Positions 13,539 through 38,747 of a DNA stretch of 64,000 bases are shown here, one piece after another. Every line of letters begins with the position of its first letter. Position 1 is the stretch's first letter. This DNA is from a phage. A program made the position numbers and the translations under genes. Location: the sequence record PZ445527.1; one strand, written 5' to 3'. Below the pieces are notes generated by a model, which was not told where the DNA came from, searched no databases, and saw only the letters and a list, made by a program, of their open reading frames with translations.

Positions 13539-13850
13539 TCACAGATCGGGGCGCTTATCTTCTAAACAGTCCGAGCTAATATCTTCTCCGAATCCTACGA
13601 AGCCATCAAATTCATTTGAAATATCCGTAATCATTGCTTCCATTTTCCTAATCTCCGAGGTTTTCATCCCTGCTTTACTATTCTTAAAGTGTTTGCGAGG
13701 ATTCCCGCACATCCAACAAGAACAGATACAAGGAGTAGTAGTGATAATACCTAACCGTTTAGGGCTTTCTTCATGCGGGAAGACTGTCCAATATTTCTTG
13801 CGGTTGTTCTTCACACGTTGCCGGTGATGACGTCTTAATGCTCGATCCAC
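13539..13850 (-). CDS. hypothetical protein with Cys cluster
   Basis: 103 aa; TPCICSCWMCG cysteine cluster; followed by hairpin terminator. Confidence 0.5.
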   Translation of the reverse strand: MDRALRRHHRQRVKNNRKKYWTVFPHEESPKRLGIITTTPCICSCWMCGNPRKHFKNSKAGMKTSEIRKMEAMITDISNEFDGFVGFGEDISSDCLEDKRPDL

Positions 13851-13931: not shown

Positions 13932-14300
13932 TTACATCGCCTGAGTAAATGTACGACTAATAACGTCGTTCTGCTGTTCACGCGTCAGTGCGTTAAAACG
14001 CACAGCATAACCAGAAACACGAATGGTTAGCTGAGGATATTTTTCAGGATGTTTCTGAGCATCCAAAAGCTGGTCACGACTTAACACATTGACATTTAGG
14101 TGTTGACCCCCTTCAATTTGAGGGGCGACTTCCACCTTGACTTCACGAAAGGATTCGGGGTCAAAGTGAGGTGTGATACCTTCTAGATCCTCAACTAGAA
14201 CTTTTTGTTTAAGTTCACCATCTTTAGAGTATAATTGAATAATCTGATTATTATGAACAATATTAATTACGCCAGATTTAAGATTTTGATATGCTTTCAT
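13932..14300 (-). CDS. grcA: autonomous glycyl radical cofactor (GrcA/YfiD-like)
   Basis: 122 aa; C-terminus [30 protein letters not shown] carries the glycyl-radical motif RVSGYAV and aligns by eye with E. coli GrcA. Confidence 0.8.
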
Positions 14301-14669
14301 TAGATCTCCCTGATGTTAGAATTTGGCTCAGCTTTTTGTTAACCCAGAAGCAAGATAAAAACTGGAAGGCAGGCTTGCTTTTCTCTTAACCACTAGGCTA
14401 CTTTTGGGTGCTAGCATTCCGGTGAGATTGATGGTCTCGGTTAAGAAGAAAAACACGGGACTTCTGTTTTAACGTCGTGCTCCCGGATTGATGCGACTAC
14501 GTGATTGCTCGCGCTAAGACAATGGCTATCTAAAGTCTTAGCTTCTACATTTATACTCCTGGATAGCATGGAGTTGCAGTCTACTTCCTGCTGTCACGCC
14601 CGGTCATTTATAGAATGTGGACTCTCTTCTCAGCAAGTTCTGGCACTATGGCCTGATCTTCTGTTTGGT

Positions 14670-14745
14670 AGTTAGTAGTGGAATCGAACCAGGTTCCACG
14701 GTTTACAAGACCGTTGCATCGCCAGCAATGCTTTAAGAGCTATCG
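14670..14745 (-). tRNA. tRNA-like element or fragment (anticodon-like loop CTTGTAA, TGT)
   Basis: T-loop GGTTCGATTCC and 3-prime ACCA present with a good anticodon stem-loop, but no pairing 5-prime acceptor strand found; abuts the 3-prime end of the HNH ORF. Confidence 0.3.
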
Positions 14746-15534: not shown

Positions 15535-15610
15535 TGGAGCGGCTAGAGGGAATCGAACCCTACTCAGCGAGGCTTGGAAGGCCTGCGACACAACCCGTGT
15601 GCTTAACCGC
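15535..15610 (-). tRNA. tRNA-Gly (anticodon TCC)
   Basis: Manual fold: acceptor GCGGTTA/TAGCCGC, anticodon loop CTTCCAA, T-loop TTCGATT, encoded CCA. Confidence 0.7.
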
Positions 15611-15618
15611 TTATTGTT

Positions 15619-15692: not shown

Positions 15693-15784
15693 AATTGTTT
15701 GGCTGGAGTGCCTGATTCAATCCCAGGCACCTTCGGAGTCAGAGGCCGACGACTTGACAATTGATCTACACCTCAAGAATACTA

Positions 15785-27280: not shown

Positions 27281-27796
27281 TTACTTCGCTTTACGTTTAC
27301 GAGCTGGTTTAGCAGATTTACGAGCAGAATCACCCGTGAACTTAATGCCTACACCGTAACACAGAGCACGAACATTATCTTTACTATACTCTACGCCAAA
27401 GATATTTGGCTTAACAGAACCAAACTGTCCACGAGTATCACGCAATACATCTGCCGTTGGTTTGCGTTTCTGGTTAACTGCTTTCTCGTAATCTTTCATG
27501 GCCATGCCATTACGAGGGAACAATTCTGCTCCAGCATTGAAACTCAGTGCTACGGGAACAGATTTGTGACCGTAACCCTGTACATAGGTCACAAGGCGGG
27601 TTACAGAACGAGTAGCATTCTTAGCCTTCGGCTTTTGACGAATCGGAGCCGGACGATTCAGTGCCTGTGCAGCTTGAGCATCAGTAGGGTGCTTGCGCAG
27701 GTGGCGTTCCAGACGAGCTTTGCGGTTAGCCTCAGTCTGAGGGAAAGTTTTAACTGTAGTAGCTGCTTGAGTTTTTGCGTTTTTCTGCTTAGCCAT
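27281..27796 (-). CDS. basic protein, possibly nucleic-acid binding
   Basis: 171 aa, Lys/Arg-rich termini; promoter 27835..27863. Confidence 0.5.
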   Translation of the reverse strand: MAKQKNAKTQAATTVKTFPQTEANRKARLERHLRKHPTDAQAAQALNRPAPIRQKPKAKNATRSVTRLVTYVQGYGHKSVPVALSFNAGAELFPRNGMAMKDYEKAVNQKRKPTADVLRDTRGQFGSVKPNIFGVEYSKDNVRALCYGVGIKFTGDSARKSAKPARKRKAK

Positions 27797-27834
27797 TATT
27801 TGTTTTCCTTTTTGTTTATCAATTTATGAAGTAT

Positions 27835-27863
27835 ATTATACGGTAATTTGAAGCGTTTAGCAA
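27835..27863 (-). promoter_or_regulatory. sigma70-type promoter
   Basis: TTGCTA, 17 nt spacer, TATAAT. Confidence 0.6.
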
Positions 27864-27871
27864 ATGAATTT

Positions 27872-28321
27872 TTAATTTATTAACTGTAAGCTTCTTTTAA
27901 TTTCAGACCTTACCTGCATCAAAAGAACTCCTAAAGTATTGTCCCCGATGCCTCGGCAAACACCCCAATATGTATCTCCCCAGGTATTTCCTTCGATCAA
28001 AGTTGCATTTTTTGTTGCTAACAGTTTGTCCCTCAAATCAGGGATTGCAAACTTTAACCGTAAAAGCTCTAGCATTACGTCATCTTTTACCTTATCCCAG
28101 TCAGAGCGCAGAGTTAATTTACGTCCCCTACGTTTGGCAACTCCTGCATTTAGGGAGCGCAGTACATGAGCTACATCATCTTTTTGGTCGGATTTCATAG
28201 CCTGAAAAGCATGTTCTACAGTATCAGCATGCCATATCTCATTTAGATATTCGAAAGTAATTGGTGATAAATAAAAGTTAGATAAAAAACTATAAGTACC
28301 TTTAAATTCAGTAATCTTCAT
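27872..28321 (-). CDS. NADAR (YbiA-like, DUF1768) domain protein
   Basis: 149 aa; FYLSPITFEY...EHAFQAMK...GNTWGDTYWG resembles the NADAR/YbiA family. Confidence 0.6.
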   Translation of the reverse strand: MKITEFKGTYSFLSNFYLSPITFEYLNEIWHADTVEHAFQAMKSDQKDDVAHVLRSLNAGVAKRRGRKLTLRSDWDKVKDDVMLELLRLKFAIPDLRDKLLATKNATLIEGNTWGDTYWGVCRGIGDNTLGVLLMQVRSEIKRSLQLIN

Positions 28322-33311: not shown

Positions 33312-36300
33312 TTATAAGGTGCAGCCACCTGAAGAACATCCTGTAGTTTCTCCAGCTCCTCCACCATTCGCAGTGTTAAAGTTAGCATAATACCAGGTTT
33401 TTATACCATACTTAACCGCAGTCATAAAGTCACGAACTACTACTGGGCCAGGGATGATTTCATTCTCGAATTTAGAGTAATCATAATACATCTGGAAACT
33501 TGATGACTGACTCAAGAATTTTTGGTAAACGGCGTTCCACTTGATCCACTCAATACGATCTACATCATAGGCCAGTTTATAGCTCATGAGAGTATCCCAA
33601 TCAGTTGCACCTGGGGCAATTGCAATTACTTTATTCACTGCACTACCCTTGATAGATACAATCTTACGAGGTGGTTCAATAGAGTTAGTAACGCCTAACA
33701 GAACAGAGGAACTTTCTCCCGGCATCTGCGCAGTCAGAACAGAGTTACGCATACCGTATTTCAGAATGTCTGCACGCAGAGATTCCCAATCCATTTCTAG
33801 ACCTACGGATACCAGCTCATCAACAGTTTTCTTATACGTGTCGATTACCAGAATTCCTTTGGATGGTTTAGTACGATTAAACCATTCACATGCACCTTGT
33901 TCTTTAGCCAGACGTACAGAGGCTTTATGTAGGAAGTAAGACAGTTTTTCAGCTTCACGATGAATCCAGTTACGTGCTTCAACGCCTTCATAAGCCAAAC
34001 CTTCCGCCGCCATTGCACCTGCTGCGTTCATCAGACCAATACCAACATTACGACGTTTCTTAGCCGTATATTCCATAGTTGGGAACGGATAATCCTGAAT
34101 TTCAATGATGGTATCAACGAATTTCAGGAGGATGTAGCAAGTTTTCTCCCACTCAGCCAGAGATTCCATGCGTCCTAGTACAACACCACCTAAGTTACAC
34201 AGAGATACTTCACCAATATCCTCTGGCTTCATTTGATCAAGCTGCTCTTTTGTCTTATACAGCTCTGTGATATGATGGAACGGGCGTGTAGGCTGAGTAA
34301 TTTCTACACAGTTACCCGCTAAAATGCCATTAAATACACCTAAGTTTAATTTAGGTTCTGTAAAGCAATAAGTATCACTAATACGACCAGTAAACTCAAC
34401 GTTAGTTACAGTTACAAAACGGGTTGCGTCTCTATTGGGGCGTGTTAGGTTTAAGAGTTTCTCTTTATCCAAAGAGAGTCCTAAATCTTTAAGTTTCCAG
34501 AAGCCACTACTCCCCACAATAAGCCTACTAGTCTCCTTGCAGTGGTATAGTTTACTAGTACCAGTACCATCTGGTAACTCGTGGTCACCTTCTTTGCGTC
34601 CTAAAATAATCTTGCTAGTAACCCCCAATTCTAGTAACAAATCCTTCACTTTACTTAGAAAATCAGGCTCTGCCGAAGCAACCACAATACTAGGAGTTGT
34701 GCCATTTTTCTGTATGCAGCCATCTGCATCTAAATATCCCTCTAACCATTTGATACGGCTATCAATAGTATACTCTGGGCCAGGTACAAAATACTTCGGC
34801 ATTAAATCAGACTTAACAATATAGCTCAGTCTACCTGTGCTGTCCAGTAATCCACTTCCCTGAATTTCTGCGTCAATTTTATCCACTAATGGTAGTTTGC
34901 CACCTTTTTCATAGAAGTACAGCTTAGGTTCTCCATGTCTTCCATAAGTTCCATCTCCAGTGAAGAAACCGTTAGTATAAGGAGATTTTAGTACCATATT
35001 TCCATGATCTACAATAGGATTACTAAATTTAGGCATTTTCATACCTACTTGCAAGTCTACTGCTCGTACCTCTTCTAGCCCCTGTTTGAAAGAGGTACGA
35101 CGATCCTCTCTGACATATTTGGGCTGGTGGTAGAACTTATGATAAAGAGTAGATTCAATAGTAGATCCATCAGAGAATGTGATTTTTATCAACTCCTGAG
35201 CTTCCCCAGTTTTAGTAGGGATAACTGTTGACCATTCTTGTCCGTTCCAAATCTCTACTTCTTTACCAACTAAATCAATAATCTCTATGTTACCATTTTT
35301 GGTTAAAATTTTTGTTTCTGGAGCTACACAAAGGTTTGTCATACGGATTGGATCAAGGAAGTTACCGTGACGATTAGATTCCCCGATGTGGTGCGCATAC
35401 ATACGTCCTGTTTCCATTCGGATACGTAGCCAAGTATCTAGGATTTCTTTTGCAGAGACTTTAGGAGCTGCTGGAACTGTTTTTCCTTCGTGGTCGATCT
35501 TTGTAAGAGATGCCACACGTTTCTCCGCTGCCACGTAGATTTCTTCAAATTTAGCCTCGTCATCACTATAAAACGCTTCATGAACTTCTGGAGCATAGAA
35601 GTATGACATTAGCGTAATATCTTCATTTTTCAGATAACGTTTTAACAAAAGATTGTTGAAGCTCAGAGAATAATCCATCTTATCAATTTTATTCTCGTCT
35701 GTAGCACGTTGTTGCTTAACCTGCATCAACTGAATGATTTCAGGGTCAAAGTATGGATAAGACACTGTAGCAGAACCACCACGAGTTTGCTGAGTATTGG
35801 CCTTTACTGAGCGATCAATGTGTCGATAATATGGCAGTTTTCCGGAATGCGGGAATGCCCCATTTCGCACCGGATCAGCAATTGATCTGCTTTCAAGATG
35901 ATACCCGATTCCCGCTCTGGCTGCAACCATTTTGAAGACGATGTGCTCGGCGGTGTCGATTGAATCCAACGTGTCAGTGGAATCCACGAGGCAGCAACTA
36001 GCAAATCCACGGTCACTAGAGCGCAGACCAACCAGTGGCGGCGTAGGAACGTTGATTTTGTGGAGCGACATTGCGTTGTAGAGGTCGATTGCATCTAGAA
36101 TTGTCCAGTTAGGTTGAGATAACATCGCCATTGCCATACCCATGTAGGCAAACTGCGGAGTTTCATAAATTTCACCAGTGGCTATGTTGCGGCGGGAATA
36201 CTTATCAAAGAACTGCTTCAGTCCACCACTAGTAAAAAGACGGTCACGATCATGGTCGATAACCTGATTCAGAGCTTCAAATTGCTCATCGGTAATCCAT

Positions 36301-36659
36301 GCACTCATGTCTTCCCATGCACCTACGCTAACCATGTGGTCATGGAAGAAGCGCAGAGAAGGTGGTTCGAAGGAATCATAAAGGCGTTTACGCATTTGCG
36401 CAAGACGTAATTCCTTTGCTGGCACATCGTATGCTGGGTTATCTTTGATAAGGCTTTCAGCAGCCTTAATTAATGCGTCCATCAGAGTGTCGGAATCTAC
36501 AACCCCTTTAGGCAGAGTTTTTTGAGCAGCCATAGTAATGGCTGACCAACTTACATCAACTGTTTTGCAACCATACTCTGCCCAACCATTGAGTTTTTCA
36601 GGAGCAAAGTCTTCTACAGTACCGTCACGTTTAATTACTTTTTCAATGCGATGGCTCAT
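33312..36659 (-). CDS. nrdA: ribonucleotide reductase large subunit with in-frame intein
   Basis: ORF 33312..36764; start placed at MSHRIEKVIKRDG Met by comparison with NrdA N-termini; class Ia R1 motifs throughout; about 340 extra residues inserted at the NLC active-site motif. Confidence 0.9.
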   Translation of the reverse strand: MSHRIEKVIKRDGTVEDFAPEKLNGWAEYGCKTVDVSWSAITMAAQKTLPKGVVDSDTLMDALIKAAESLIKDNPAYDVPAKELRLAQMRKRLYDSFEPPSLRFFHDHMVSVGAWEDMSAWITDEQFEALNQVIDHDRDRLFTSGGLKQFFDKYSRRNIATGEIYETPQFAYMGMAMAMLSQPNWTILDAIDLYNAMSLHKINVPTPPLVGLRSSDRGFASCCLVDSTDTLDSIDTAEHIVFKMVAARAGIGYHLESRSIADPVRNGAFPHSGKLPYYRHIDRSVKANTQQTRGGSATVSYPYFDPEIIQLMQVKQQRATDENKIDKMDYSLSFNNLLLKRYLKNEDITLMSYFYAPEVHEAFYSDDEAKFEEIYVAAEKRVASLTKIDHEGKTVPAAPKVSAKEILDTWLRIRMETGRMYAHHIGESNRHGNFLDPIRMTNLCVAPETKILTKNGNIEIIDLVGKEVEIWNGQEWSTVIPTKTGEAQELIKITFSDGSTIESTLYHKFYHQPKYVREDRRTSFKQGLEEVRAVDLQVGMKMPKFSNPIVDHGNMVLKSPYTNGFFTGDGTYGRHGEPKLYFYEKGGKLPLVDKIDAEIQGSGLLDSTGRLSYIVKSDLMPKYFVPGPEYTIDSRIKWLEGYLDADGCIQKNGTTPSIVVASAEPDFLSKVKDLLLELGVTSKIILGRKEGDHELPDGTGTSKLYHCKETSRLIVGSSGFWKLKDLGLSLDKEKLLNLTRPNRDATRFVTVTNVEFTGRISDTYCFTEPKLNLGVFNGILAGNCVEITQPTRPFHHITELYKTKEQLDQMKPEDIGEVSLCNLGGVVLGRMESLAEWEKTCYILLKFVDTIIEIQDYPFPTMEYTAKKRRNVGIGLMNAAGAMAAEGLAYEGVEARNWIHREAEKLSYFLHKASVRLAKEQGACEWFNRTKPSKGILVIDTYKKTVDELVSVGLEMDWESLRADILKYGMRNSVLTAQMPGESSSVLLGVTNSIEPPRKIVSIKGSAVNKVIAIAPGATDWDTLMSYKLAYDVDRIEWIKWNAVYQKFLSQSSSFQMYYDYSKFENEIIPGPVVVRDFMTAVKYGIKTWYYANFNTANGGGAGETTGCSSGGCTL
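34311..35330 (-). mobile_element. intein with LAGLIDADG homing endonuclease inside nrdA
   Basis: Insert begins with Cys (CVAPET), ends GILAGN followed by +1 Cys of extein NL-CVEITQP; contains GFFTGDGTYG and LEGYLDADGC motifs. Confidence 0.8.
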
Positions 36660-36803
36660 TTGGTTTTCCTTTTTATAGTTATCAGGATTTAAGGAATATT
36701 CTACATTATTATTGGTCATTAGGCAAATAAAATTTTCTGATAGAAAAGGCCCGAGTATTTTCATACCCAGGCCCTCTGTGTTGTCAGTCTAGTTTTTGGC
36801 CAC

Positions 36804-38081: not shown

Positions 38082-38747
38082 ATGGTAAGAAAGAAAATAA
38101 CTACAGAAGATGTGAACTTAGCACTTGCTCCCAGAGGAATAATTATGCTAAGCACGTATATATCAGCTAAATCCAATGCTATATTTAAGTGCTCTAATGG
38201 GCATAGTTGGGAGGCTAGAGTAGATAATGTAAAAGGTGGGAGAGGTTGCCCTTATTGTGCTAGTCGTACTTTAGATCTTAAAGAGGTAAATGAATCCTTA
38301 GCTGCTCGTGGAATAAAGATGGAAGGTAAATACATCAATTCTAAGAGTAAAATTATGTTCAGCTGTGAGAATGATCATAGGTGGGAGTCTACCCTTGATA
38401 GTGTTAGAAATCATAATTCTGGTTGTCCTATATGTTTATTAGAGAAGGATAATTATCCTACTAACGTATATATTTTAGTAAGTAGTATGGGAACCAAAAT
38501 AGGGATGTCTAGCAGAACTAAAGATAGACTCAGAGATATTAAAACTTCTTCTAACATACATGATTTAAAAATATTTAAGGAATATAGCTTTTCAGATAGA
38601 TCAAAAGCTGTGCGTATTGAAAGAGAAGCCCATTTACAGTTTAAGGAATATAATTGTCAGTACAAAGATTTTGATGGTGCTACAGAATTTTTTAGTATTG
38701 AGCCAGAAGTAGTAGCAAGGTTTATTGAGGAAATAATTAATGAATAA
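38082..38747 (+). CDS. zinc-ribbon plus T5orf172/GIY-YIG-like nuclease-domain protein (putative homing endonuclease)
   Basis: 221 aa; two CxxGHxW...CPxC zinc-ribbon repeats and C-terminal region VYILVSS...RLRDIKTS...REAHLQFKEY resembling the T5orf172 domain. Confidence 0.55.
   Translation: MVRKKITTEDVNLALAPRGIIMLSTYISAKSNAIFKCSNGHSWEARVDNVKGGRGCPYCASRTLDLKEVNESLAARGIKMEGKYINSKSKIMFSCENDHRWESTLDSVRNHNSGCPICLLEKDNYPTNVYILVSSMGTKIGMSSRTKDRLRDIKTSSNIHDLKIFKEYSFSDRSKAVRIEREAHLQFKEYNCQYKDFDGATEFFSIEPEVVARFIEEIINE

Follow-up and report, generated by a model that had tools for sequence, protein, structure and literature searches.

Biochemically validated spare-part proteins of the glycyl-radical type are so far two, YfiD (GrcA) of E. 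coli and Y06I of bacteriophage T4 (PMC8683613). Both take a glycyl radical from the activase of pyruvate formate-lyase (PFL) and rebuild the catalytic centre of PFL that has been cleaved by oxygen (Wagner et al. 2001, summarised in PMC8683613), and in vivo work points to transfer of the radical on Gly102 of GrcA to Cys419 of PflB (PMC12338860). Within YfiD, residues 1-60 promote binding to cleaved PFL and installation of the radical and are dispensable for catalysis; in the free protein this N-terminal half is disordered by NMR (PMC8683613).

The gene that we compare with these systems lies in a stretch of 64,000 nucleotides of phage DNA (sequence record PZ445527.1), referred to throughout as the window. 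Megablast of its neighbourhood and of the nrdD region returned hundreds of T5-like phages (Demerecviridae, Tequintavirus/Epseptimavirus) at 88-96% identity, so that the window, judged by its sequence, is DNA of a T5-like phage (Demerecviridae). An initial annotation of the window had proposed a GrcA-like open reading frame of 122 codons on the minus strand, and its position proved correct, with both the ATG start and the stop codon lying within the coordinates (Table 1). The stretch GGAGATCTAATGAAAGC at the Shine-Dalgarno sequence is kept in T5 and HdH2, and a scan for promoters and terminators around the gene returned nothing above shuffled expectation. The radical glycine, Gly97, is encoded at 14010..14012 on the minus strand. 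The protein had been described as ending with the RVSGYAV motif, which is loosely worded: the motif is present, but 22 residues separate it from the C-terminus. RVSGYAV is invariant in 89 spare-part homologues, and the phage protein retains all 33 of the 33 positions that are invariant among them, the whole radical loop included. Around this loop every residue of the protein is conserved.

Table 1. Features of the GrcA-like locus and of related genes, with positions in the window.
Feature	Position	Strand	Remarks
GrcA-like CDS (T5p055 / T5 'putative formate acetyltransferase')	13932..14300	-	122 aa + stop, ATG start; from the ORF list
Shine-Dalgarno AGGGAG	14306..14311	-	5 nt 5' of the GrcA-like ATG; read from the sequence
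RVSGYAV glycyl-radical motif	14001..14021	-	residues 94-100; read from the sequence
Glycyl-radical domain, residues 61-122	13935..14120	-	counterpart of PflB 698-759 and GrcA 66-127
N-terminal half, residues 1-60	14121..14300	-	T5-lineage-specific, predicted beta-rich
T5 ORF053 homologue, 103 aa, basic	13539..13850	-	CxCxCxxC-GNPRK; directly downstream of the GrcA-like gene
nrdD, class III (anaerobic) ribonucleotide reductase, 615 aa	38740..40587	+	RRVCGYLG; PF13597 E 5e-172, PF01228 E 9.6e-23

Profile searches gave matches to several glycyl-radical families. Pfam Gly_radical (PF01228) matches residues 62-103 (E 3.6e-18), and the best NCBIfam match is the GrcA equivalog TIGR04365 (E 2.5e-35), which covers residues 50-122 only. 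The score against this model, 121.5 bits, is below the curated equivalog cut-off of 170 bits. T4-type vs.6, at 154.6 bits, does not reach it either, nor do the jumbo-phage forms, at 135-144 bits; E. coli GrcA attains 234 bits. Because vs.6 and the jumbo-phage forms also fall short, the cut-off divides bacterial from phage forms rather than functional from non-functional ones. Here and below, T4-type refers to vs.6 of the T4-like phage RB51, and we take Y06I of T4 to be the product of the vs.6 locus. Among sequences in the PDB, E. coli YfiD/GrcA ranks first with its NMR structure (6owr; E 1.6e-30, residues 49-121) and PflB second (E ~5e-27, residues 61-122 against 698-759). Similarly, a Foldseek search with an AF2 model of the phage protein returned 6owr first (TM 0.75 on the target, 60 ordered residues) and then PFL (2pfl). 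The claim of GrcA-like identity, which was to fall if the protein failed to align with GrcA over the glycyl-radical domain, thus holds: the alignment exists, and the Pfam and PDB matches are far beyond chance. Known proteins of this kind are small and stand-alone (~120-130 aa, GrcA/YfiD type, TIGR04365/COG3445), and the phage protein has a comparable length with a Shine-Dalgarno sequence and ATG of its own. Together these comparisons support the designation of the reading frame as a putative autonomous glycyl-radical protein of GrcA/YfiD type.

Pyruvate formate-lyase proper (TIGR01255) was considered and rejected. Only positions 683-744 of the 744 in this model match, with 86 bits against a cut-off of 994, and the phage protein has neither the ten-stranded barrel of ~750 aa nor the catalytic Cys418/Cys419. 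The names 'pyruvate formate-lyase' and 'formate acetyltransferase', under which the gene is often found, are therefore misnomers. Naming in T5-like genomes is inconsistent and often wrong, with '2-ketobutyrate formate-lyase', 'ribonucleotide reductase subunit', 'putative acetyltransferase-related protein' and 'hypothetical protein' also in use.

The likeness to the described systems is concentrated in the C-terminal part. Over the last 62 residues the phage protein is identical to E. coli PflB (residues 698-759) at 49, to E. coli GrcA at 48 and to the T4-type protein at 49 positions. The T5 type is therefore equidistant from the three, unlike vs.6 of RB51, which agrees with E. coli GrcA at 60 of its last 62 positions. 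In the DNA, resemblance to E. coli genes is confined to the 3' half of the gene, the best match being pflB (74.7% identity), whose sole region of similarity is the segment encoding 698-759; a median of three matching places was found per genome. Against T4-type vs.6 the protein aligns over its full length at 53% identity, so that the T4 comparison proposed in the initial annotation came out in its favour. The two are alike in size (120-122 aa), in their MKAYQ start and in an identical radical loop, whereas their N-terminal halves are only weakly alike. They also share PHROG 1209: residues 1-122 of the T5 type match positions 1-121 of 121 in the phrog_1209 profile (E 5.8e-48), RB51 vs.6 matches it with E 5.4e-63, and the T5, T4 and jumbo-phage forms are all end-to-end matches. 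A different arrangement was seen in two 127-aa sequences, P0106 and P0099, in which the N-terminal half of GrcA is joined to a PflB-type C-terminal tail (...SLTKEQQQDVITRTFTQSM). These come from short Logan/ENA contigs, one of them representing a cluster of 900 members, and are either grcA-pflB assembly chimeras or real gene-conversion variants.

The protein had also been called collinear with E. coli GrcA. This is borne out for the C-terminal ~72 residues, where BLASTP aligns residues 51-122 with GrcA 54-127 (P68066) at 74% identity, but in the N-terminal 50 residues nothing aligned. Comparing these ~50 residues of the T5 type with bacterial GrcA, we found no similarity by BLASTP, by profile-profile alignment with hhalign or by a shuffle test (z -0.4). 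Between the N-terminal profiles of the T5 type and the T4/jumbo type hhalign gave a weak match (Prob 75%, E 2.6e-5), with a shuffle z of 3.9 for T5 against vs.6, and between the T4/jumbo type and bacterial GrcA the probability was 99.5%. Derivation of the N-terminal half from PflB 633-697, with which it has 'Y(A/S)KDG' in common, was rejected as not significant (shuffle z 1.5, p 0.10). In the AF2 model (mean pLDDT 78) the N-terminal half is predicted to form strands at 2-6, 12-16, 19-26 and 29-37 (pLDDT 84-91), followed by a strand at 51-54, a low-confidence segment at 62-71, helices at 75-83 and 107-117 and, between these two, the radical hairpin at 92-95/98-101. The low-confidence residues correspond to the segment that inserts into PFL. 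A modelled GrcA of E. coli type has the same order of elements: first a beta-rich N-terminal half and the low-confidence insertion strand, then a helix and the radical beta-hairpin, and last a C-terminal helix. Collinearity of the N-terminal half with GrcA is thus plausible but unproven. Since the corresponding half of free YfiD is disordered, the sheet predicted for the T5 type, if it forms at all, may do so only when the protein binds.

The gene itself is already known, the T5 copy having been annotated two decades ago as YfiD-like. In the T5 record AY587007 it lies at 27577..27945 as 'putative formate acetyltransferase, IPR001150', and in T5 st0 T5p055 is labelled 'pyruvate formate-lyase related protein' with a glycine radical motif (PF01228) and 'acid-induced glycyl radical enzyme' (COG3445). 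The protein of the window is 100% identical to those of T5 (AAX11991.1/AAU05208.1) and HdH2. At the DNA level, comparisons among the window, T5 and HdH2 gave 13-20 synonymous and 0 non-synonymous differences (dS 0.19-0.31, dN 0), 17 of the synonymous sites separating the window from T5, and this ratio points to strong purifying selection, on the N-terminal as well as the C-terminal half. By tblastn, the protein was found in 1584 phage records, ~437 of them at >= 80% identity (the T5-like group); the remainder include T4-like phages (vs.6, often labelled 'autonomous glycyl radical cofactor GrcA') and jumbo phages. Two short contigs that lack annotation (6.3 kb and 4 kb), deposited as 'Listeria phage LM 4-14-1' (OR848450.1 and OR848732.1), match T5-like coliphage sequence. 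Our literature search returned no T5-specific study of the GrcA-like gene, nor one of nrdG in T5-like phages.

The neighbours are the same as those of T5p055 (AAU05208.1), with ORF053 downstream and the tRNA cluster upstream. In contrast to T5, the tRNA-Met/Ile/Thr block upstream is rearranged in the window and accompanied by a spacer, as in NBEco002. More precisely, the block of tRNA-Met, tRNA-Ile, ORF055 and tRNA-Thr (T5, HdH2, NBEco002) has collapsed, and at 14670..14740 on the minus strand the 5' part of tRNA-Thr is joined at the T-arm (GGTTCGATTCC) to the 3' end of tRNA-Met (ACTACTAACTACCA). ARAGORN does not detect this chimeric tRNA, and its Rfam score of 24.5 bits is below the threshold of 29. 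Between it and the GrcA-like gene lies the non-coding spacer of ~370 bp (14315..14669), also found in NBEco002. Further sub-threshold tRNA-like matches of 30.9 and 20 bits (15538..15611 and 15703..15775, both on the minus strand) flank an intact tRNA-Gln. They may be decaying tRNA genes, as T5 and HdH2 have tRNA-Gly and a second tRNA-Gln there.

Given that all 33 invariant positions are kept, we assign the mechanism of YfiD and Y06I to the T5 protein. Our preferred reading, to which we give a probability of roughly 0.8, is that the gene encodes the autonomous glycyl-radical cofactor of the T5 family, which would act like YfiD and Y06I in repairing the oxygen-damaged PFL of the host. Expression of the gene is from the phage's early, tRNA-rich region. 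The last 62 residues of the protein, close to a copy of PflB 698-759, would supply the part that is lost when oxygen cuts the enzyme at the radical glycine. By analogy with YfiD and Y06I, the protein would dock onto oxygen-cleaved PflB of the host, and possibly onto TdcE; the host radical-SAM activase PflA would then install the radical on Gly97, and this radical would abstract hydrogen from Cys419 of PflB. Hosts carry pflB with pflA adjoining. Two observations speak against a spare part: the half that YfiD needs for PFL binding and efficient radical installation bears no detectable resemblance to YfiD in the phage protein, and the TIGR04365 score is below the cut-off, although that of the T4-type protein is as well. 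Recognition of damaged PFL is presumed to lie with the N-terminal half of the phage protein.

Alternatively, this N-terminal half, unlike that of YfiD, invariant among the three phages and predicted to fold into a four-stranded beta-sheet, might be a distinct targeting module by which the spare part acts in another manner, a reading that we regard as doubtful. If so, the protein might be loaded onto PflB or TdcE that is undamaged or freshly synthesised, or PflA might activate it without prior docking. Either route, if true, would give the phage control over the pyruvate flux of its host beyond mere repair of damage, and the two radical proteins of T5-like phages would then need a host activase each, PflA and NrdG.

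Less likely again is that the protein serves as a decoy or inhibitor, occupying host PflA or the active-site cleft of PFL without catalysis and thereby shutting down or redirecting host fermentation. Mimics of parts of host proteins are often encoded by phages, and with an N-terminal half that differs from YfiD the outcome of docking could differ as well. Against this, every invariant position is kept, the whole radical loop included, and a decoy could do without an intact context of the radical glycine maintained under a dN of 0. In vitro, the homologue of T4 does restore activity (PMC8683613).

The presence of a second glycyl-radical protein invites another explanation. The claim that the phage encodes nrdD held up on inspection, as the reading frame contains the NRDD domain, a Gly_radical domain and RRVCGYLG, and with the GrcA-like protein the phage indeed has two glycyl-radical proteins. 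NrdD, like PFL, is an enzyme of the glycyl-radical type that is cleaved by oxygen, and both genes are retained throughout T5-like and T4-like phages, which would suit a spare part for NrdD of the phage itself after damage by oxygen. Nevertheless, the GrcA-like gene does not stand 'alongside' nrdD, as the initial annotation had put it, but is 24 kb away on the opposite strand. The two proteins have no significant similarity (BLASTP E 5.1, as opposed to 79% identity with the PflB C-terminus), and their motifs, RVSGYAV and RVCGYLG, are unlike. Distance, strand and lack of similarity together make such a role very unlikely. Finally, it is scarcely credible that the gene is a functionless remnant, the captured 3' end of a host pflB or grcA, a view that would fit the DNA likeness confined to the 3' half and the many records misnamed as PFL or 'ribonucleotide reductase subunit', but not a protein identical in three phages despite their synonymous differences, a frame and Shine-Dalgarno sequence intact in hundreds of genomes, and retention of the gene in the T5 st0 deletion mutant.

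Probable insertions were noticed at and near the ribonucleotide reductase genes. The nrdA reading frame (33312..36764, minus strand) encodes 1150 aa compared with ~776 aa in T5. A LAGLIDADG_3 domain at residues 672-758 lies inside the RNR barrel domain, with the flanks ...NLC|VAPETKIL... and ...GILAGN|CVEITQ, and this looks like an intein with a homing endonuclease. Upstream of nrdD, a reading frame of 221 aa at 38082..38747 (plus strand) combines a DUF4379 treble-clef zinc finger with a T5orf172/MUG113 (homing-endonuclease-like) domain and its end overlaps the start of nrdD by 8 nt. No gene occupies this position in T5, where the 370-nt gap between phoH and nrdD holds only a promoter, and the frame is probably a mobile-endonuclease insertion.

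We also searched for the activases on which the two radical proteins would depend. A six-frame scan for CxxxCxxC and tblastn with a T4-like NrdG agreed with the initial annotation that the window holds no NrdG-like activase with this cluster. The search was extended, as had been suggested there, to the complete 121,752-bp T5 genome, a proxy for the parts of the genome outside the window, and no nrdG was found in it. In the window and T5 together the tblastn search returned nothing below E 7, with a positive control at E 3e-106, and neither contains a homologue of NrdG or PflA. Among the annotated genes of T5 are nrdA, nrdB and nrdD, but no activase. In this T5 differs from T4-like phages, which have their own nrdG adjoining nrdD. 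With no activase in the window or in T5, both phage radical proteins appear to rely on host activases. For the GrcA-like protein the absence of NrdG is uninformative, as proteins of GrcA type are activated by PflA, the PFL activase supplied by the host (PMC8683613). Among real genes of the window and T5, CxxxCxxC occurs only in the ORF053 homologue, in the motif TPCICSCWMCGNPRK. In T5, ORF053 and the GrcA-like gene both lie between the putative promoter P16 and a terminator. The homologue was considered as a mini-activase and rejected: it is too short for a radical-SAM enzyme, has no Pfam match, and its sole PHROG matches, 4499 and 6828, are of unknown function.

The discovery weight of these results is small, as an identical T5 protein was already annotated and its T4 counterpart is one of the two validated spare-part proteins. 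Their practical value lies in annotation, where the name should be 'autonomous glycyl-radical cofactor (GrcA/Y06I-like)'. The T5 gene further offers a convenient natural variant for testing the role proposed for the YfiD N-terminus. Whatever benefit the phage draws from a GrcA-like cofactor is something that we infer. That two glycyl-radical proteins in one phage reflect an adaptation to anaerobic hosts, as originally suggested, is a reasonable reading of the pair.
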